From a virus (taxonomy: Duplodnaviria > Caudoviricetes): DNA of 64,000 nucleotides. Where the stretch lies: the IMG/VR virus record IMGVR_UViG_3300028048_000039, positions 96,001 through 160,000 of that record. The stretch is one strand, 5' to 3'. This document shows, piece by piece, positions 3,005-16,607 of this stretch; position 1 is the first letter of the stretch, and each line of letters starts with the position of its first letter. A program made the position numbers and the translations under genes. The notes below the pieces were generated by a model. That model did no database searches and was not told the DNA's origin. It was given only the letters and a program-made list of their open reading frames with translations.

Positions 3005-4354
3005 TTATGCTGAATGCTGAATTGCACAACTTATGGTAATTTTTATTAACGACTCCGTACCTAACATATTGTTAAAGTGAAGTTGTCCTGTTGTAACGCC
3101 ATATTGAAACGTTATGCTACCTTCTGTAGACTCAGGTGAAATTATGGTAATTAAATCGCTTGTATGTGTTCCTAAATAATAATCAAAGTTGAAGGTTAAT
3201 GTTATGTTTGTGTCACCATAATCTCCACTGCCAGAAGGTGCAAGACTGCTCGCAGGAACGTTTTCAAGATTAAAACTACTTGCTGCAAAAAATTTTGCGG
3301 CTGTATAGCCAGTTATATATATACGCTCATTACCACCATGTACAGTAATATTATCGTCGTCATCACTACTTAAAACTTCAGATTCTACAGAAGTCTCAAA
3401 ATTTATATTATATTCACTAGGCCCTGTCTTTGCTGACTGACTAACTGTTATAGCACCAGATACGCCATATGTACTGTCCGATATTGTAATAACTCCACTT
3501 CTATCATCAGTAAGTGAGTCGTTTTCCGATACATTAGCAACTACTTTGATTAAAGAGAAATCAGGGTCGTGCAAATCTTCAAAATAACAAAAATTAGTTA
3601 TCCAATTAACACTAGATGCAGAAACAAAATTATAAGGCAATGGGATATTAGTCCTAATAACAGAATTGATTGTTTGTTCAGAACTGTTTATATTATGTGT
3701 TTTTCCGCTTATTACCCTAATATACTTATAGTCACTATAATCTTCAGGAATTGGCTTTGGAACAAAACTACTCTTTATTTTGAAGGCCTTTTTATCTGAG
3801 CCTGTGGCGGTGTTGCCACTCATCTCAATCTTAGATGAAAGATATGTATTTACCCATCCTGTTACGGTTGAACCGCCATAACTCTTAGCATTCATGATTA
3901 ATCTTTTATCGTAATTTAATCCAGAAAGCATACCAGAAGGGGAAGCCCCAGAAACGATGTCCTTGAAGTCACCTTCTGTCATACAAATGTCACTAACCTC
4001 ACGAGTCATAAGTATCTTTCCTGTAGAATCTGCAGCAACACGCAATTTAGCAGTCTTTCCTTCCGTTGTTAATGGTTCGCCACAATTAGGGCATAAGGTC
4101 CCTTCACCACCAATAACAGGAGCACCGCACACGCTACAATCGTATTCAGAAACAATAGAACACCCATTTCTGCCATAAGAGTTATAATGTTTCTTCTGTG
4201 CAATTACTGAGAATGTGCCACCTGTATTATTCATGTTAAATGTTGTAGCGCTAGAATTGGTTTCAACACCATTAATAGTTAATGCAACATTTGGTAAATT
4301 ATAATTTTTTTGTATATTTGTGTCGTATACCTTAGGAACGTAAACTGTTGGCAT
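3005..4354 (-). CDS. Putative virion structural protein with a zinc ribbon and a BACON-like Ig domain
   Basis: CSVC...CPNC; SSVNWIT...VSENDSLTDDRSGVITI...ITVSQSA (BACON-like); S/T/G-rich; AACTATTTAT motif upstream (4387-4396, minus). Confidence 0.55.
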   Translation of the reverse strand: MPTVYVPKVYDTNIQKNYNLPNVALTINGVETNSSATTFNMNNTGGTFSVIAQKKHYNSYGRNGCSIVSEYDCSVCGAPVIGGEGTLCPNCGEPLTTEGKTAKLRVAADSTGKILMTREVSDICMTEGDFKDIVSGASPSGMLSGLNYDKRLIMNAKSYGGSTVTGWVNTYLSSKIEMSGNTATGSDKKAFKIKSSFVPKPIPEDYSDYKYIRVISGKTHNINSSEQTINSVIRTNIPLPYNFVSASSVNWITNFCYFEDLHDPDFSLIKVVANVSENDSLTDDRSGVITISDSTYGVSGAITVSQSAKTGPSEYNINFETSVESEVLSSDDDDNITVHGGNERIYITGYTAAKFFAASSFNLENVPASSLAPSGSGDYGDTNITLTFNFDYYLGTHTSDLITIISPESTEGSITFQYGVTTGQLHFNNMLGTESLIKITISCAIQHSA

Positions 4355-4386
4355 TTGTTAAAATCGTTAAAATACTATTATTTTCT

Positions 4387-4396
4387 ATAAATAGTT
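4387..4396 (-). promoter_or_regulatory. Putative phage late promoter motif AACTATTTAT, representative copy
   Basis: Same sense-strand motif at 7652(+), 10555(-), 10593(+), 11922(-), 22516(-), 24426(-), 24641(-), 37226(-); variants at 16657(+), 40003(+), 28163(+). Each lies shortly upstream of a start codon. Confidence 0.7.
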
Positions 4397-4453
4397 TGGA
4401 TTTTAAGATTATTCTTTGTATATTTACTATGTTTGAGCTAAATTTGAAAAGTT

Positions 4454-5632
4454 ATGATAGATGAAGAAATGAAAATTGGTTATGATGATATAACCATAGT
4501 ACCTGAAAGAATAACGACAATTGAAAGCAGAAAGGAGTGTAATCCTTATGATGAAGAAGGTTATCTTCCAATTTTTGCTAGTTGCATGAGTTCGGTGGTT
4601 TCCATTGATAACGCAAAGAAATTCAATGATGCAAAGATTAAGGCAATTATCCCTAGAAGTTATTCAGTTGCAGATAGATTAAGATACCTTGCAATGAATA
4701 ATAATACACCTAACTTTGTTGCCTTCTCCCTTGAAGAGGCGAGAACTTACTTTATAGACACTTGGGAGGCAACATATAAGGTTATTAAGGAAGATTATAA
4801 GCTCTCAGAAGCATGGCCTAATCCACCAAGACCGTTTAGGATTTGTATTGACCTTGCCAATGGGCATATGAAGAAACTCTTGGAGACAGTAAAGAAAATA
4901 AAGGAGATTTGGAAGAATGGAATTGTCATTATGACAGGAAATATCGCCGAGCCAAGAACTTATATCGACTATGAGAACGCAGGTGTGGATTTCTGCAGGA
5001 TTACCGTAGGAAGCGGAAGCGTATGTAGCACTGCAAGCAATACAGGTGTTTTCTATCCTCCATTTTCTCTTCTAAAAGAAGTTTATACCATTAAGAAATC
5101 CATGGATGGCAAGTGCAAGATAGTTATTGATGGTGGTATTCGTGGCTTCAGAGACATTCAGAAAGCCCTCATTTACGCCGATTATGTCATGATTGGGGGA
5201 TTGTTTAACAAGGCAATGGAAAGTGCCGGAAAAACGACTTATGGAAGCTTTTACTGGAATATTAGAGGCAAGAAAATTTATCGTCCATTGAAGACATTGC
5301 TCTATTACGGAAAGGAAATCCCAAAGAGGAAGTATGAGAAGATGTTTAAGCTTGTTAAGGCAAATAAGCTCACTGTCTGGAAGGAGATTTACGGTATGAG
5401 TTCAAAGATTGCCCAGGCTCTTATCTCTTCGGCAAACACTGGAACTGTCAAGAACCTAAAGACCTCAGAGGGCTTGCATAAGTATCAGAAGGTAGAGTAT
5501 AATATTCAGGGATGGGCAGAAAACGAGACTGACTTCCTTCGCTCAGCGATGAGTTACACCAATTCAAGAAATCTTGATGAATATAAGGAATCAAAATGGG
5601 TAAGAATCTCAAAGAGAATGTATAATGATTAA
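4454..5632 (+). CDS. GMP reductase / IMP dehydrogenase family protein
   Basis: IGYDDITIVP, CIDLANGH, GNIA, VGSGSVCST (catalytic Cys), IDGGIR, ADYVMIG, YGMSS, SEG, LRSAMSYT. Confidence 0.85.
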   Translation: MIDEEMKIGYDDITIVPERITTIESRKECNPYDEEGYLPIFASCMSSVVSIDNAKKFNDAKIKAIIPRSYSVADRLRYLAMNNNTPNFVAFSLEEARTYFIDTWEATYKVIKEDYKLSEAWPNPPRPFRICIDLANGHMKKLLETVKKIKEIWKNGIVIMTGNIAEPRTYIDYENAGVDFCRITVGSGSVCSTASNTGVFYPPFSLLKEVYTIKKSMDGKCKIVIDGGIRGFRDIQKALIYADYVMIGGLFNKAMESAGKTTYGSFYWNIRGKKIYRPLKTLLYYGKEIPKRKYEKMFKLVKANKLTVWKEIYGMSSKIAQALISSANTGTVKNLKTSEGLHKYQKVEYNIQGWAENETDFLRSAMSYTNSRNLDEYKESKWVRISKRMYND

Positions 5633-7648: not shown

Positions 7649-7683
7649 AGAAACTATTTATGATAGATAAAAAGTATCATTTT

Positions 7684-9840
7684 ATGACATTATTTGAAAG
7701 TTTAACATATGACCTCTTGGTAGAGGGGAAAAGCCCAGAGGAAATCAAGCAGTTATTAAAAGGAAGATTTGCTGATATACCAGAAGAAATAATCAGTGAC
7801 ATCGTGAATATGGACCCAACAAAGAAAAAGAGTTATTCAATGTGGGCACTTACTAAGTATGCTTCTGAAGGCAACCTATTGACCGCAGCGCTTAAGGACG
7901 GAAGATTGAAGCAACTCTTTGAATACATTAGGGAGCATAATGATGTTCAGCTTCAAACCATTAGCACACTTGCTGAGGCATTAAAACTTCTCCCCGAAAC
8001 AGATACCATCTTCCAGAAAACCGGTGGTCCTGAGGATAATTATAAAATTGTTTTTGACAGCCCTGAGTGGAGAATTTGTGTTCCTTACACATATGAAGCA
8101 GATAAGAAACTCGGAGAGAACTGCCGTTGGTGTACCGCTGGTGCTTTCGGTGAGGCAAATGGCCCTAGTTACTTCAAAAACTATTATGGCCCTGAGGGCG
8201 AACTCTTCGTTAATTTTGATAAGAGAACCCCACAAAGACTTAATGGAAAAGAATATCCATATACAAGATATCAGTTCTGCTTCAAAAGCCCACAATTTAT
8301 GGATGCATTTGATAATAGAATTAACAAAGATGACATTGACATCCCTGAAGACGTATTAGAATATTATCAAGACGCTGGATATGATACTGACCTTCTTTCC
8401 GAAGACGAAGAAGAGGCATGGGAAAGATATGATGAGTGGCGTTTTAATCAGGGATGGTGGGTCATTGATGGATGGGAATTTCTTCCATATAATGCTGGAC
8501 CTCACATTCCAAATCATGATGGAGATTTAACATATTATCTTTATGATACTGAAAATGACAATTATGACCCAGTAAGTTGGATTGAGTATGAAATAAATGA
8601 TTATGAAGTACAAGATGAAGATAACAATATTGCTGTCTTAAAGGAAAGGAATAATCACAAAATATTTGCTTGCATAAATGGACGTGCATTCCAAGACAGG
8701 GTTGAATTTTATGAAATTTTTGATAATCCAGTTGATGAGAGTAAAATTATATACACCCAAACCATTCATAAAGAGAGTACTGTTTTAGTTAAGAATGAAG
8801 AAGTATATATCAATTCCGAAAGCAATAACGATGAAATACCAAGAGTAACTGAGGCTGAATATAATGAGGATATTAGTGAGGCAAGGGGTACGTTATGTAT
8901 CGAACTTTGGTGTGAGAACAGGAAACACTATCTCATTGAATTGTATATGGGAAGGGGTGCTAGATATGGTCGTAGAATTACCCAAGGTCATTATTTAATT
9001 GTAGATAAAACACCTTTAAATGGTGAATATTTCACAACCGAAGATATTGGTTCCGATTCAGCAAATTATGAATATAAAGATGTTAAGACCCTAAAAAGTG
9101 GTTTTAAATTAGTAACAACAGAAAACAAATATTTTATTGTTGACAAAGAAAATAAACCATTATTTAGGAAAGGTTTTATGTATTTTGAGGTTAAACGAGT
9201 CCCTGTAACTGGAGAGGAATACATCGTCCTCTATAATGACAGTTATTCAAAGTGCCTTTTCAATAGTTATGGAAAATTAATAATATCTGGTTATAGCGAT
9301 TTCGAATTTAATGATAATTTAATAATATGTAGAGAGGAGAACGACCGTAGGGAGACTGATTTCTTCGATGTATACAGTATTAAGGACCCAAGGAGACATT
9401 TTGATGGAATAATTTCACAGTATCGCTTAGGTGATAAGATAATGCTGGCACAGGGGAGATGGCATGTTTATATAGTAATATGCGACGGAGACCTTAATGT
9501 AATTCGCAAATATAGTCCAGGGACTGTTGAGTTTATTGATGGTCTGGTTAAACGTTATGCCCTTGTGCAAGAAGGATTTTATGACAGTCGTAAATACCTT
9601 ACTGACTTGTTTAACAATGAAAAGGTTTTTGAAAAACCTATCGTTGGTTATAGAAAGTATGGTAAAAACATTATATTCAAATTTAGCGACCAGACGACAG
9701 CATCTGTTAACCCTACAACTGGTGCGATAGTTAGACAAAAGAAGAAAAAGAATGCAGTACGAGCACAAGCTCAAGCCCTCCGGGAATTCTATGAGAGAAT
9801 GATTAAAAATGATGGGAAGTCAACCTTCCTTGATGAATAG
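7684..9840 (+). CDS. Large hypothetical protein, putative late/virion-associated
   Basis: Late motif at 7652 overlaps the ORF-track ATG (7660), so 7684 is the likelier start; RWCTA...RYQF region and beta-repeat-like C-terminus. Confidence 0.6.
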   Translation: MTLFESLTYDLLVEGKSPEEIKQLLKGRFADIPEEIISDIVNMDPTKKKSYSMWALTKYASEGNLLTAALKDGRLKQLFEYIREHNDVQLQTISTLAEALKLLPETDTIFQKTGGPEDNYKIVFDSPEWRICVPYTYEADKKLGENCRWCTAGAFGEANGPSYFKNYYGPEGELFVNFDKRTPQRLNGKEYPYTRYQFCFKSPQFMDAFDNRINKDDIDIPEDVLEYYQDAGYDTDLLSEDEEEAWERYDEWRFNQGWWVIDGWEFLPYNAGPHIPNHDGDLTYYLYDTENDNYDPVSWIEYEINDYEVQDEDNNIAVLKERNNHKIFACINGRAFQDRVEFYEIFDNPVDESKIIYTQTIHKESTVLVKNEEVYINSESNNDEIPRVTEAEYNEDISEARGTLCIELWCENRKHYLIELYMGRGARYGRRITQGHYLIVDKTPLNGEYFTTEDIGSDSANYEYKDVKTLKSGFKLVTTENKYFIVDKENKPLFRKGFMYFEVKRVPVTGEEYIVLYNDSYSKCLFNSYGKLIISGYSDFEFNDNLIICREENDRRETDFFDVYSIKDPRRHFDGIISQYRLGDKIMLAQGRWHVYIVICDGDLNVIRKYSPGTVEFIDGLVKRYALVQEGFYDSRKYLTDLFNNEKVFEKPIVGYRKYGKNIIFKFSDQTTASVNPTTGAIVRQKKKKNAVRAQAQALREFYERMIKNDGKSTFLDE

Positions 9841-9848
9841 GAAAAAAG

Positions 9849-9877
9849 AAAGGACCTCGATTTTGAGGTCCTTTTTC
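9849..9877. terminator. Bidirectional terminator
   Basis: AAAGGACCTCG-attt-TGAGGTCCTTTTT; near-identical copy at about 18370. Confidence 0.8.
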
Positions 9878-9882
9878 ATTGT

Positions 9883-10536
9883 TTAATCTTCATCATTCGG
9901 GTCATAATCCCTGAAATAGTCATTTCCTTTCTTAGCACACTTAATTATCTTCTTAAGAAGTTTTTTGGCATCATTCCAACCTTCTTCGAAGTAATCGCCA
10001 TTAAGTATCTTAACTTTTCCACCAGCCTTGGTTAATACACGTATCCTCTCTGGTTGATAAGAACCATAGGCACTCTTGAATGGGAAGTGAATATAACCAC
10101 GTCCATCAAGTACGATTGGTGCCGTAAGCCCAAAGAAATCATCCTTGTCCTTTAATGGCATATCATCTTCTTGATACCTCTTAGCTTCTTCAAATGCTTC
10201 ATTTGCCAATGAAATGGCAGCATTAATTTTGCTAACCGGGTCAGATATTTCATTTAACACTTTCTTAACGCCTTCCATTACTATAGTACGAATATCCCTT
10301 TCAGTTATACGTACAATACTCTCATTAGCCTTACTCTTCTTCTTGCTTTTCTTTACATGATTTGGGAGACCTTTATGCTTTGTCTTTGCAAATTCCTTTG
10401 CCCCCTTTTTTGATATAGATTTAGCAGCATCCTTAATAGCCTTACTAGGGTTATCAAGCTCACCTTTCTGATAAGCGTGAACCATTCCGAAAAATCGCTG
10501 CTGTGCACGGCTTTTTGCTTTTTCATTTAGTATCAT
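9883..10536 (-). CDS. Late basic protein (KSxAQQRFFGMV...FAKTKHKGLP, DUF3008-like) whose N-terminus is supplied by the adjacent insertion
   Basis: Recognisable N-terminal motif; late motif at 10555-10564; see findings. Confidence 0.65.
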   Translation of the reverse strand: MILNEKAKSRAQQRFFGMVHAYQKGELDNPSKAIKDAAKSISKKGAKEFAKTKHKGLPNHVKKSKKKSKANESIVRITERDIRTIVMEGVKKVLNEISDPVSKINAAISLANEAFEEAKRYQEDDMPLKDKDDFFGLTAPIVLDGRGYIHFPFKSAYGSYQPERIRVLTKAGGKVKILNGDYFEEGWNDAKKLLKKIIKCAKKGNDYFRDYDPNDED

Positions 10537-10608
10537 AATGAGAAATATTTTTAAATAAATAGTTCATTTTTATTAGAAAATAAGATATTTTCAACTATTT
10601 ATAGAAAA

Positions 10609-10716
10609 GATTTTTTTGTAGAAGTAAGGCCCTACAAAAAATCAAGACATAATAATCTTACAGGGAGTATAGTCTTTTACCAGGCCTTACAATATGGTAA
10701 TTTTCTATCTCCTTGT
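10609..10716 (+). ncRNA. Structured 5' leader RNA with a predicted kissing-loop interaction
   Basis: Hairpin 1 loop GTAAGGCC (10624-10631) is the exact reverse complement of hairpin 3 loop GGCCTTAC (10683-10690). Confidence 0.6.
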
Positions 10717-10727
10717 TTTTTTATGAT

Positions 10728-11876
10728 ATGAAGAAAATTACAAAGGACGAATTTATAAAAAGGGCAAATAGTTGCCATAATAATAAATATGATTATTCTA
10801 AAGTGGTCTATATAAATAGTACAACTAAGGTTAATATTATCTGTCCGATATATGGAGAATTCCTTCAAACACCTTCTAAGCATTTAAGAGGACAAGGCTG
10901 CCCTATTTGTGGTAATAAAAAAGCAATAGCCGAGAGAAATAGAACACAAGACGAATTTTTGCGTATGGCAGAAAACATACATGGTAAAAGATATGATTAT
11001 AGCAAAACATTATACAAAAAGAATGATAAGAAGGTTTGCATAATATGTCATGAAAAAGACAAATTCGGAATTGAGCATGGTGAATTTTGGCAAGAACCAC
11101 ATACTCATCTGAATGGAAGTGGTTGCCCTAAGTGTTCTCAGAATCATAAATATACAACACAAGAGTGGGTTGAAAGGGCTAAAATTATACATGGCGATAA
11201 ATATATCTATGATAATGTAGAATATGAGTCGTGGAATAAAAAGGTTTGTATTATATGCCCAGAACACGGGGAATTTTATCAAACACCACATCACCATCTA
11301 AGTGGTCACGGATGCCCTTTATGCGCAAGTCAGGTCGTTAGTGAAAAGAAAAAACTATCACAAGATGAATTTATTTCCAGAGCAAAAACCATTCATAATA
11401 ATAAATATGATTATAGTAAAGTAGAATATGTTGATTGCAAAACCAAAATTAATATTATCTGTCCGATACATGGAGAATTTAGACAATATCCATCATACCA
11501 TCTAAGCGGCAATGGTTGTCCCTTTTGTAACGAAAGTCATATAGAAAGAGAAGTTAAGAATACTTTAGAAAAATACAAAATTGAATTTAATCGGAAAAAA
11601 CATTTTCCTTGGCTCAAAAATAAGCAAGAAATGGAATTAGATTTTTATCTTCCCACTGTAAAGGTTGCTATTGAAGTACAAGGCAGGCAGCATTATGAGC
11701 CAGTTAGTTTTGGTAGCAAAAATAATGATAAAGTTCAGCAAAGATTTAACGAACAAATAGAGCGTGATAAGAAGAAAAAGAAATTATGTGAAGAACATGG
11801 TATTAAAATGATTTATATCGATTTTAACGAAAAAAATGACATTGAAAAAATCATATTAAACTCAATTCTAAAATAA
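10728..11876 (+). CDS. Putative homing endonuclease: four DUF723-like zinc-finger repeats plus a C-terminal PD-(D/E)xK/Vsr-like nuclease
   Basis: Repeats of H.xKYDYSKV.Y...IICPxHGEF.Q.P..HL.G.GCP.C; ELDFYLP...AIEVQGRQHY...DKKKKKLC. Confidence 0.85.
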   Translation: MKKITKDEFIKRANSCHNNKYDYSKVVYINSTTKVNIICPIYGEFLQTPSKHLRGQGCPICGNKKAIAERNRTQDEFLRMAENIHGKRYDYSKTLYKKNDKKVCIICHEKDKFGIEHGEFWQEPHTHLNGSGCPKCSQNHKYTTQEWVERAKIIHGDKYIYDNVEYESWNKKVCIICPEHGEFYQTPHHHLSGHGCPLCASQVVSEKKKLSQDEFISRAKTIHNNKYDYSKVEYVDCKTKINIICPIHGEFRQYPSYHLSGNGCPFCNESHIEREVKNTLEKYKIEFNRKKHFPWLKNKQEMELDFYLPTVKVAIEVQGRQHYEPVSFGSKNNDKVQQRFNEQIERDKKKKKLCEEHGIKMIYIDFNEKNDIEKIILNSILK

Positions 11877-11903
11877 TGCCAGTGCTTTACTCTTTGCTGG
11901 CAT
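11868..11903 (-). pseudogene. Orphaned original 5' end (MPAKSKA) of the 9883-10536 gene
   Basis: ATG CCA GCA AAG AGT AAA GCA C behind its own AACTATTTAT (11922-11931); runs into TAG after 11 codons. Confidence 0.65.
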
Positions 11904-11985
11904 ATTAAAACTATTTTCTTTATAAATAGTTTGCTTTTTCCGTTTATTTTATGTATATTTAACAAAAGTTAAAATAGATTTTAAG

Positions 11986-12804
11986 ATGGAAGAAACGTTA
12001 AAAGAAAAATGCAAGAGACTTCAGAATGAGAAGAATTATAAGGTAGACCCAGAGAAGTACATTATTGTACATGTTGATGGGCGTTCCTTTTCAAAAGTAG
12101 TCAAGAATAAGTTTAAAAAACCATTTGACAACGACTTCATTAACATGATGAACGAGACAGCTAAGTACCTCTGTGAGAATGTTCAGGGGTGCCAAGTGGC
12201 ATATGTTCAGAGTGATGAAATTACGTTAATCTTGAAGAAAATGAGACCGGAAAGCGATGTCTTTTTTGGCGGAAGACTTTGTAAGATGCAGAGCATCATT
12301 GCTTCAATGGCAACAGCAAAATTCAACCAATTAGTGACTTTGTATAACATCAAGAAGGATGCCTATGACTATATCAAAATAGACTATTTAGACACCATTT
12401 ATAATGCAAAGGACATTGTAAGGATGATTAAGGATTCATCACTTTATGAGTTTGACTGTAAGGTATGGGATGTTAATGAGAGAAACGATGCAATAGCATG
12501 GTTATTATTTCGCAGCATTGACTGCATCAGGAATTCGAAGAACCAGACAGCACAGACTTATCTTTCACATAATGAATTGCTTAATAAGACAGCAGATGAA
12601 GCAATTGAAATGCTGAAGGAGAAGAAGGACATTGATTGGAATAAGTTGCCAGATGGTATCAAGTATGGGCGTATACTTGTTAAGGAACCGATTACGGTTA
12701 TATGTGAGGGAGGAACGACAACCAGGATGAAGTGGCATGTAGAAGATGGTTTCGACCTTACTAATAATGAAAAGAGAGAATTATTTTTTGAAAACATTTT
12801 TTAA
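11986..12804 (+). CDS. thg1: tRNA(His) guanylyltransferase, Thg1/TLP family
   Basis: IVHVDGRSFSK, KPFD, AYVQSDEITL, FFGGRLCKM.S, FDCKV, RSIDCIRNS. Confidence 0.9.
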   Translation: MEETLKEKCKRLQNEKNYKVDPEKYIIVHVDGRSFSKVVKNKFKKPFDNDFINMMNETAKYLCENVQGCQVAYVQSDEITLILKKMRPESDVFFGGRLCKMQSIIASMATAKFNQLVTLYNIKKDAYDYIKIDYLDTIYNAKDIVRMIKDSSLYEFDCKVWDVNERNDAIAWLLFRSIDCIRNSKNQTAQTYLSHNELLNKTADEAIEMLKEKKDIDWNKLPDGIKYGRILVKEPITVICEGGTTTRMKWHVEDGFDLTNNEKRELFFENIF

Positions 12805-15522: not shown

Positions 15523-16360
15523 ATATAACATTATAGTTGAGGGCGAACCAAAGGAAGTGACTGAGATAAGGAAGAAGATACTCTCCTCATTTGATGGACT
15601 TGAGTTTGTTGATGAAGGGCATAAGTATTTCCTTAATGGTCAGGAATTAGTTTCTGTATCCTCAATTGTAAGCCAGTTTGAAGAAGAGTTTGACACCCCT
15701 GCGAAGGCAGCAGCGTATGCAGAGAAGAATGGTGAGACTGCAGAGTATTGGATTGACCAGTGGAAGCTGATAAATCTTAAGGCAACAATCACAGGAACCC
15801 AAGTACATAGCTACGGTGAGTCACTTGCATGGCTCCATATGGGTTGTCCAGAAAATATCACTGATGATAACAAGTATAAGTACATCAAGGATAAGGGTTG
15901 GTTAATTCCAACGAGACCAAAGGAAATTGCTGCATTAAACTTTTTTGAAAGCTTCCCGGAGAATACCTATGTTGTATTGCCAGAGACGAGGATATATAAT
16001 ATAGGTGATAGATTTAAATATGCAGGAACATTTGACCTCCTGGTTTATTATGACCATCCAACCGATAAGAGTAAGAGTGGGCTGATTGTAATGGACTGGA
16101 AAACGAACAGGGAGATTTATAAGGAGTATAGCCGTGAGCACGGAAAGATGATGATATGGCCATTTGGTGAGTTGTATGATGAACCTTATGGTGGTTACAC
16201 AATACAGTTGAACCTTTATACAATCGCACTGAGGAAGATTGGTCTTAATGTCATTGGCAGGAGAATTATATGGCTTAAGGAAGATGAAACATTTGAGATT
16301 ATTCCGGTAGATGATGTTAGTGAGAACATATTTAAATTGGATGAAAAGTTGAAAAAATAA
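15500..16360 (+). CDS. PD-(D/E)xK (Cas4/RecB-like) exonuclease
   Basis: SVSSIV, GTQVH, AGTFDLL...MDWKTN, QLNLY. Confidence 0.8.
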   Translation: MPLRDESKYNIIVEGEPKEVTEIRKKILSSFDGLEFVDEGHKYFLNGQELVSVSSIVSQFEEEFDTPAKAAAYAEKNGETAEYWIDQWKLINLKATITGTQVHSYGESLAWLHMGCPENITDDNKYKYIKDKGWLIPTRPKEIAALNFFESFPENTYVVLPETRIYNIGDRFKYAGTFDLLVYYDHPTDKSKSGLIVMDWKTNREIYKEYSREHGKMMIWPFGELYDEPYGGYTIQLNLYTIALRKIGLNVIGRRIIWLKEDETFEIIPVDDVSENIFKLDEKLKK

Positions 16361-16379
16361 TGATATTAAATCTTAAGAT

Positions 16380-16607
16380 ATGAAAAAAGATGCACGTTAT
16401 GAAGTAATCAAGGCGATACCTCTTGGGGGTGACAAGGAAATCCCCGTAAAGACAGCGATTTACAGGACGCACGGTGTTTATTATATGGATGGTGGTCTAC
16501 TACCACAATCTTACCAGGAAGACTTCGATAAGCTCATTGAACATGAGGAAGTTAATGGATGGAATTACATCTGTCCGATTAAGACGAGGGAAGCGTTCAA
16601 GAATTAG
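16380..16607 (+). CDS. Hypothetical protein
   Basis: ORF followed by a terminator. Confidence 0.6.
   Translation: MKKDARYEVIKAIPLGGDKEIPVKTAIYRTHGVYYMDGGLLPQSYQEDFDKLIEHEEVNGWNYICPIKTREAFKN

Follow-up and report, generated by a model that had tools for sequence, protein, structure and literature searches.

A phage homing cassette that appears to give its target gene a new 5′ end

We analyzed a stretch of 64,000 nucleotides ("the window") from a virus (Caudoviricetes) known as IMG/VR record IMGVR_UViG_3300028048_000039. The window corresponds to bases 96001–160000 of this 344.6-kb record of an uncultured jumbo phage. Near its start, the single DUF3008 gene of the whole genome is interrupted by a 1,379-bp cassette that encodes a nuclease on the opposite strand. 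We think it quite likely that this is a free-standing homing cassette, that it has re-headed the DUF3008 gene, and that it has spread by homing, with no splicing involved. Homing endonuclease genes are usually said to survive within genes by means of introns or inteins, or else to lie between genes. The locus described here points to a simpler route, in which the cassette replaces the head of the gene and brings a promoter with it, and there are natural before-and-after alleles in two phage lineages. One is the window's own lineage, with an empty allele on contig L012, and the other is that of contigs L016 and L017, with an empty allele on contig L018.

The features of the locus, in window coordinates, are:

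11922–11931, minus strand: native promoter-like motif AACTATTTAT of the original DUF3008 gene, the same as in the empty allele (L012) and now upstream of the orphan start only
11868–11903, minus strand: orphan start, comprising the native start (ATG, 7 codons; 11903–11882), then 4 cassette codons and a TAG; the empty allele begins with the same 22 native nt
10503–11881, no strand assigned: inserted cassette, 1,379 bp, delimited by BLAST of L012 against the window, with the same limits in L016 versus L018
10728–11876, plus strand: homing endonuclease gene, 382 amino acids (Pfam, PHROGs, alignment A1, structural model, and the ratio of nonsynonymous to synonymous substitution rates, dN/dS)
10593–10602, plus strand: cassette-borne promoter-like motif facing the nuclease gene and followed by a 125-nt leader (genome position 106594, plus strand; kept in L016)
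10555–10564, minus strand: second promoter-like motif of the cassette, directed toward the rebuilt DUF3008 gene, located 18 nt upstream of its new ATG and identical in L016
10507–10536, minus strand: replacement head (new ATG, 10 codons; MILNEK plus AKSR), 100% identical between the window and L016
10450–10506, minus strand: co-converted tract of the target gene; over its 57 nt, 6 positions differ from the empty allele, all synonymously
9883–10536, minus strand: live DUF3008 gene, 217 amino acids, a hybrid of cassette head and native body with a Pfam DUF3008 match
11876–11903, no strand assigned: 7-bp inverted repeat between the end of the cassette and the native ATG-CCA-G (arms 11876–11882 and 11897–11903, loop of 14 nt)

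The orphan is an open reading frame (ORF) of 12 codons that opens at the ATG at 11903 on the minus strand. Its first 22 nt encode MPAKSKA, and it ends at a TAG at 11870–11868. The live protein begins with MILNEK and continues with AKSRA-QQRFF, and its match to DUF3008 begins at residue 7. The limits of the cassette are ambiguous by the 4-bp GCAC that is present at both ends (11885–11882 and 10506–10503), and 10507–11885 is an equivalent choice. The stop codon of the nuclease gene lies 5 nt from the cassette edge. A first-pass annotation, made by a model from the letters of the window, had described the orphan MPAKSKA running into TAG, a second motif followed by the MILNEK start, and GTGC/GCAC at both junctions, and we verified these statements to the base. 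It had also read the opposite strand as a zinc-finger/PD-(D/E)xK endonuclease gene, which is borne out by Pfam, PHROGs and a fold match for the ORF at 10728–11876.

The nearest DNA relatives of the window are Lak phages that recode TAG. The window has 37% GC, is densely coding under genetic code 11, and uses all three stops (TAA, TAG and TGA), so the TAG that ends the orphan ORF is a true stop. We also found no suppressor tRNA, and TAG recoding was ruled out for the window.

Filled and empty alleles in two phage lineages

With the 217-aa protein as query, a search identified P0001, a protein of 213 amino acids that starts with MPAKSKA-QQRFF and is 99% identical apart from the head. Its gene is on the sister contig L012, which runs collinear with 19 kb of the window and is about 93% identical to it there. 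In L012, the genes for a Thg1-like protein and for the DUF3008 protein are adjacent, and the nuclease gene is absent between them. By BLAST, L012 5722–10022 corresponds to window 16197–11882 and L012 10019–17109 to window 10506–3424. The two matches overlap by the 4-bp GCAC, and therefore the insert is 1,379 bp. The L012 gene starts with the 22 nt of the orphan (22 of 22 positions match) and goes straight into QQRFF and the body of the live gene. This is exactly the empty allele that the first-pass annotation had foretold, and its claim that removing the insert restores the reading frame thus holds in a natural allele as well as by arithmetic. It had further expected relatives without the nuclease to start with MPAKSKA and not with MILNEK, as P0001 does; MPAKSK-type starts are the commonest state among the 120 DUF3008 homologues listed.

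The same cassette occurs in a second phage backbone. The closest homologue of the nuclease is P0122 (93% amino acid identity, equal length), on contigs L016 and L017. The cassette of these contigs is 93.7% identical to the window's at the nucleotide level and is inserted at the same DUF3008 codon. On the minus strand, a native-type start of 7 codons is joined at GCAC to the same cassette end, and the live DUF3008 gene of L016 (227 amino acids) begins with the same 10 cassette codons. Nucleotide homology between L016 and the window is restricted to window 10335–11905, and just 4–5 of the roughly 30 ORFs of the L016 backbone have homologues in the window's genome, where they are located elsewhere. 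This lineage also has an empty relative, L018, whose protein P0010 has 223 amino acids versus 227 and whose junction geometry is identical. In other words, there is a presence/absence polymorphism at one base-precise site in two backgrounds (window versus L012, and L016/L017 versus L018). Since the same cassette sits at the same codon in an unrelated backbone that has its own empty relative, site-specific homing is much the best reading. The first-pass annotation had proposed homing from the window only, and the L012 allele, the MPAKSKA starts and the second backbone all support it.

About 600 bp from the L016 cassette, a 147-aa gene (L016:9767–10210) is 83% identical to a gene elsewhere in the window's genome (G000:C1:187289–187720). 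Its counterpart in the empty contig (L018:6957–7400) is 67% identical to the window genome's gene. These similarities suggest that, near the nuclease gene, there was another exchange with a phage resembling the window's.

The flanks of the insert differ from each other. On the gene side, the window and L012 are 88.8% identical over the first 100 nt and about 96% identical beyond, with the 6 synonymous differences falling in the first 57 nt; on the other flank, identity is 99–100%, with no differences in 200 nt. Similarly, the first 66 nt on the gene side of L016 differ from the empty L018 at 19 positions and from the window at 5, and the imported tract turns the L016 protein to the window type. 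The tract that is common to both filled alleles ends near 10450. In this respect the first-pass annotation put the boundary of the insert too early: imported sequence reaches about 55–90 nt further into the target gene. Together, the one-sided co-conversion, the precise and recurrent junction, and the dN/dS of the nuclease gene (0.19 between the window and L016 copies) are what nuclease-driven homing would predict.

The upstream side is informative as well. The L016 orphan retains an AGC codon of its own lineage (AGT in the window and in L012) 9 nt from the junction. The stranded start is therefore the phage's own and did not come in with the cassette, which places the upstream crossover no more than about 8 nt from the insertion point. 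Because this native codon was retained so close to the junction, the nuclease probably cuts at or next to the insertion site, as intron-encoded enzymes do. Because the orphan side of the window is still identical to L012, the insertion in the window fits a more recent event than the one in L016/L017.

The direction of change could in principle be the reverse. If the filled state were ancestral, then L012 and L018 would have lost the cassette later, through a precise deletion between the two diverged gene starts, and the two heads do share a 16-nt stretch (about 70% identity, ending in GCAC) that could mediate a deletion. We consider this very unlikely. A deletion product should keep the tract of the filled allele, yet L012 differs from the window within it while being identical upstream, and L018 likewise differs from L016 at those 19 of 66 positions. 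Also, MPAKSK-type starts are the most frequent ones across diverse phages among the homologues listed.

The nuclease, the promoter-like motifs and the replacement head

The N-terminal part of the nuclease has four treble-clef zinc-finger modules (Pfam DUF723/DUF4379), and its PHROGs families are labelled endonuclease or homing endonuclease. In an alignment of 21 members of the family (A1), we see the four repeats, with conserved Cys pairs in each, and a conserved C-terminal block with an invariant D305 and at least 90% conservation at E316, Q318, H322 and D347. The catalytic Asp/His/Asp of Vsr are D51, H69 and D97. A sequence search of the nuclease against solved structures gave no match; the matches came from a fold search with an AlphaFold model (mean pLDDT 85.5). 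Residues 268–382 of the model match Vsr (1cw0_A, Z = 12.4, rmsd 2.6 over 109 residues; 1vsr, Z = 11.8) and the catalytic domain of I-Bth0305I (3r3p_A, Z = 11.6, 91 of 97 residues, 25% identity). Judging from the model, the C-terminal domain is a Vsr variant of the PD-(D/E)xK fold, of the I-Bth0305I type. The dN/dS given above indicates that the nuclease gene is under purifying selection.

Nuclease genes of this kind recur in these phages. Between a 284-aa gene and a 75-aa gene, L012 has a paralogous DUF723/Vsr-like nuclease gene (4320–5489, minus strand), whose empty site in the window is a 19-bp spacer (16360–16380). The 3′ part of the gene upstream of this paralogue has 67–83% identity at window 15600–16197, versus 97–100% nearby. 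This is a classic co-converted flank, in which the end of the neighboring gene has been replaced and not duplicated. Three more paralogous loci with 46–52% identity are at G000:C1:313325–314320 (minus strand), 76301–77209 (plus strand) and 299763–300674 (minus strand); the locus near 300 kb gives two matches side by side. On two other jumbo-phage contigs (L027:3001–7326 and L028:1333–5658), four DUF723 nuclease paralogues are arranged head to tail, directly downstream of the gene for NrdD (anaerobic ribonucleotide reductase).

The cassette contains two copies of ACTATTTAT back to back, one directed toward the nuclease gene and the other toward the new DUF3008 start. This motif has 60 copies in the genome, and 38 of the 60 lie 10–60 nt upstream of an ORF of at least 80 amino acids. 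It is usually followed by an A-rich stretch and is typically 15–25 nt before the ATG, and a Shine-Dalgarno sequence is absent. Examples in the window are at 7653, 10563, 10594, 11930, 24649, 28164, 37234 and 40004. The motif is also common to the otherwise different L016/L018 phage. The motif AACTATTTAT, at 11931–11922 and at 10564–10555, is in each case exactly 18 nt before its ATG. The first-pass annotation had called the motif late; seven large genes of the window, six of them after the motif, gave no informative PHROGs label as to timing. The 125-nt leader between the nuclease gene and the cassette copy that faces it (10609–10716, plus strand) is almost invariant between the window and L016, with about 8 differences in 180 nt, and has a GC-rich inverted repeat inside it.

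The cassette head and the native head differ at 10 of 22 positions, including a three-base change from a Lys to an Arg codon. The first-pass annotation was right about these differences but took the head to be recoded; a borrowed head is the better reading. About 30 of the 120 DUF3008 homologues listed start with ...L(N/S)EKAKSRAQQRFF, that is, they form a natural ...EKAKSRAQQRFF subfamily. Three such genes, on marine contigs, are in ordinary co-directional operons with no nuclease gene nearby. (We had considered the MILNEK-type head as a marker of further insertions, but rejected it because it belongs to a natural subfamily found in operons of this kind.) The head was probably borrowed from a gene of this subfamily that once lay beside the nuclease gene, and the cassette's first move into a gene of the MPAKSK type was probably mediated by the GCAC microhomology. 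Thus, the divergence of the head need not have evolved for resistance to the nuclease, although it may provide resistance.

The same observations could be taken to mean that homing had no part in the events at this site. Under this alternative, a one-off illegitimate recombination duplicated the gene start around an intergenic nuclease gene, the product then moved by ordinary recombination, and the site is not a target of the nuclease. The 4-bp GCAC is typical of the microhomology at such joins, and the resemblance of the head to a natural subfamily suggests a donor gene with a nuclease gene upstream. The cassette probably first arose in this way. As an account of both insertions, we judge it improbable. 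Identical junctions in two backbones, with 22 nt of upstream homology and a recipient codon kept 9 nt away, would rarely arise passively; the nuclease is under purifying selection; and a one-sided co-conversion tract beside the insert is a signature of break repair.

Another alternative is a self-splicing intron with an antisense nuclease gene. The orphan would then serve as exon 1, giving a mature protein with MPAKSKA at its N terminus. Removal of the insert does restore the frame exactly, short 5′ exons of spliced phage genes are easily missed (PMC10448857), and group I introns are a known location of Vsr-like nuclease genes (PMC2677866). We find an intron scarcely credible, for four reasons. 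First, an Rfam scan of 9800–12100 on both strands, at E values up to 10, identified no intron family (a missing match is not proof). Second, the antisense nuclease gene fills the insert to within 5 nt of the 5′ end of the mRNA strand, which leaves no space for P1–P2. Third, the cassette has its own promoter motif and an in-frame start with homologous codons, and these are 100% conserved in both lineages. Fourth, the orphan of L016/L017 is decaying: its promoter motif, which is intact in the empty L018, has a 6-bp deletion, and its codon 3 has changed from Ala to Thr, which is absent at that position among the 120 homologues listed. A live exon 1 would not tolerate such changes. Since the promoter motif is lost and codon 3 is changed, the stranded start of L016/L017 is apparently not a live exon. 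The absence of an Rfam intron, the antisense nuclease gene and the deletion in the orphan's motif all favor the splicing-free arrangement that the first-pass annotation had put forward. An intein or split intein was also considered and rejected: the frame of the orphan runs through 4 cassette codons before a stop, the nuclease is encoded on the opposite strand, and the head consists of 10 codons homologous to DUF3008.

Finally, the stranded promoter and start, together with the hairpin at the inverted repeat, might be regulatory, either by antisense transcription into the nuclease gene or as a terminator that blocks such transcription. This would be an addition to a homing cassette and is compatible with it. 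The window still has an intact orphan promoter, directed into the antisense strand of the nuclease gene, and the 7-bp stem, which is followed by a U-rich run, is formed in filled alleles only. We doubt this role. The fold has an energy of -10.9 kcal/mol, with z = -1.55 on the relevant (minus, mRNA) strand and z = -2.98 on the plus strand; the terminator scan makes no call at the inverted repeat because of its loop of 14 nt; and L016 has a stem of 6 bp (z = +0.56) and has lost the promoter motif. The first-pass annotation had suggested that the hairpin could bury the dead start codon. The inverted repeat exists, but it is statistically unremarkable and smaller in L016, and a function for it is not supported.

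A proposed homing cycle and the points against it

We propose that a cassette with a Vsr-like nuclease and a four-module zinc-finger array has inserted between codons 7 and 8 of the DUF3008 gene. Besides the nuclease gene, it contains a divergent pair of phage promoter motifs and a replacement start that supplies the first DUF3008 codons, and the native promoter and the first 7 codons are left stranded on its far side. The DUF3008 gene would then be expressed from the cassette promoter, with a head that preserves the whole DUF3008 domain. The nuclease presumably cuts cassette-free DUF3008 genes in or very near the conserved sequence that codes for KSKAQQRFF. When the break is repaired from a filled allele, one homology arm could be the DUF3008 coding sequence, and the short stranded start could provide the second. 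Neither RNA nor protein splicing would be needed, and filled alleles may be protected from re-cutting by the divergent head and by the physical split of the site.

Several points weigh against this proposal. We infer the cleavage of the empty site, the resistance of the filled site, and the use of the internal promoter and start from the sequences. The upstream homology arm between the lineages is 22 nt, which is short for ordinary homologous repair. The insertion was found in two lineages, and probes for the junctions gave no more copies in IMG/VR (0 matches) or in Joint Genome Institute (JGI) metagenomes, where the one match fell by chance within an unrelated gene (L025). Two more distant relatives of the nuclease (P0198 and P0214) sit in other contexts, with no adjacent DUF3008 gene. 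Also, the paralogous nuclease gene that is found only in L012 is an ordinary intergenic homing gene with no duplication; therefore, re-heading belongs to this cassette and not to the whole nuclease family.

More broadly, and with a little more doubt than belief, we suggest that the locus represents a distinct class of phage homing cassette that occupies the extreme 5′ ends of conserved genes. Such cassettes would work without an intron, an intein or gene splitting; they would carry a bidirectional promoter unit and a diverged head, and their nuclease would cut at the insertion point. The head would serve both as a homology arm and as protection from re-cutting, and the stranded start would be the other arm and not a mere scar.

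Known homing systems and other features of the locus

The closest analogy is with the mORF gene hybrids of fungal mitochondria, which are known from atp6, atp9, cox2 and nad3 of Glomus (PMC3630166) and, as cited there, from atp6 of Allomyces macrogynus (Paquin, Laforest and Lang 1994). In these hybrids, a foreign C-terminal gene end comes in together with an endonuclease ORF, and the native end is orphaned (PMC3630166). As in our case, the nuclease ORF travels with a foreign, diverged gene end that is read in frame with the native body, and the orphaned native end is near-identical to the insert-free relative (for the phage locus, 22 of 22 positions, versus the 10 of 22 that differ in the head). 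Unlike the phage cassette, mORFs replace the 3′ end, for which just a stop codon is needed, whereas replacing the 5′ end means bringing a promoter and a start. They also differ in being in organellar genomes, in having the nuclease in the same orientation as the target, and in their nuclease families. (The GIY-YIG and LAGLIDADG nucleases of fungal mitochondria are the topic of PMC7487136.) We view the relationship as an analogy that does not imply homology or shared descent; the cassette would be a 5′-end mirror of the fungal mitochondrial trick.

Among phages, the T4-type MobA cassette in gene 60 has homR, a diverged copy of the target that is encoded by the insert, with 67–81% identity (bioRxiv 10.1101/2022.08.31.505936; PMC2988022). 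Like the cassette in the window, it is free-standing within a coding sequence at one fixed site, with several clades that have empty relatives, and it both carries a diverged copy of the target region surrounding the cut site and adds a new N-terminal extension to the downstream ORF. The differences are that MobA is an HNH enzyme, that the topoisomerase gene is split into two expressed subunits, that a translational bypass element is involved, and that target sequence is deleted. At the DUF3008 locus, 7 codons are abandoned, the whole protein comes from one ORF, and no recoding device is needed. We did not find gene splitting of the MobA type here: the upstream piece has 7 native and 4 cassette codons, and the downstream ORF has the whole DUF3008 domain.

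The nuclease itself has relatives in several kinds of mobile element. Vsr-like (EDxHD) enzymes of phages, a family originally reported from 'fractured genes', are found in introns, between the halves of split inteins and as stand-alone inserts, and they sometimes bring gene-control elements (PMC2677866). The nuclease in the window resembles the family of I-Bth0305I (PDB 3R3P) in its catalytic fold and in its modular organization with an N-terminal DNA-binding region. Unlike it, the described EDxHD members use an intron, split inteins or gene splitting, and none is described as supplying a replacement gene start. The four-fold zinc-finger array is like that of the T5orf172 homing genes of ICP1, in which an array of the DUF723/DUF4379 type is the DNA-binding part (PMC10448857). 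Free-standing enzymes such as Seg and Mob of T4 lie between genes and cut hundreds to thousands of base pairs from the insertion site (PMC2988022). The cassette shares with their intronless homing its own expression signals, a presence/absence polymorphism and the co-conversion of flanking markers. In contrast to them, it is inserted inside an ORF, and its cut is probably at or next to the insertion point. Our literature searches, which did not cover all journals, found no published phage cassette that replaces the 5′ end of a gene together with its promoter.

The locus is useful in that it gives two lineages, each with its own empty allele, as well as visible decay of the orphan. For the annotation of phage genomes, it means that stranded mini-ORFs and odd N-termini can be the scars of insertions, and it helps to explain mosaic boundaries made by nucleases. 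It is also a compact natural design: sequence defines all of its parts, namely the nuclease, the target and a presumably protected copy of the target. Many phages share this target, a short and very conserved coding motif, so the specificity of the nuclease is directly testable.

As for the neighboring genes, the divergent neighbor of the DUF3008 gene is the Thg1-like gene (11986–12804, plus strand), which encodes a putative tRNA-His guanylyltransferase (Pfam, E = 2e-27). The DUF3008 domain also occurs at the C terminus of, or within, longer proteins (P0005, P0021, which is encoded at L001 5515–6192, and P0014). One such protein, on a 355-kb phage contig, has the domain after a HAD-like domain. 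Inside these longer proteins, DUF3008 is preceded by ...EKA(V/K)SKAQQ.

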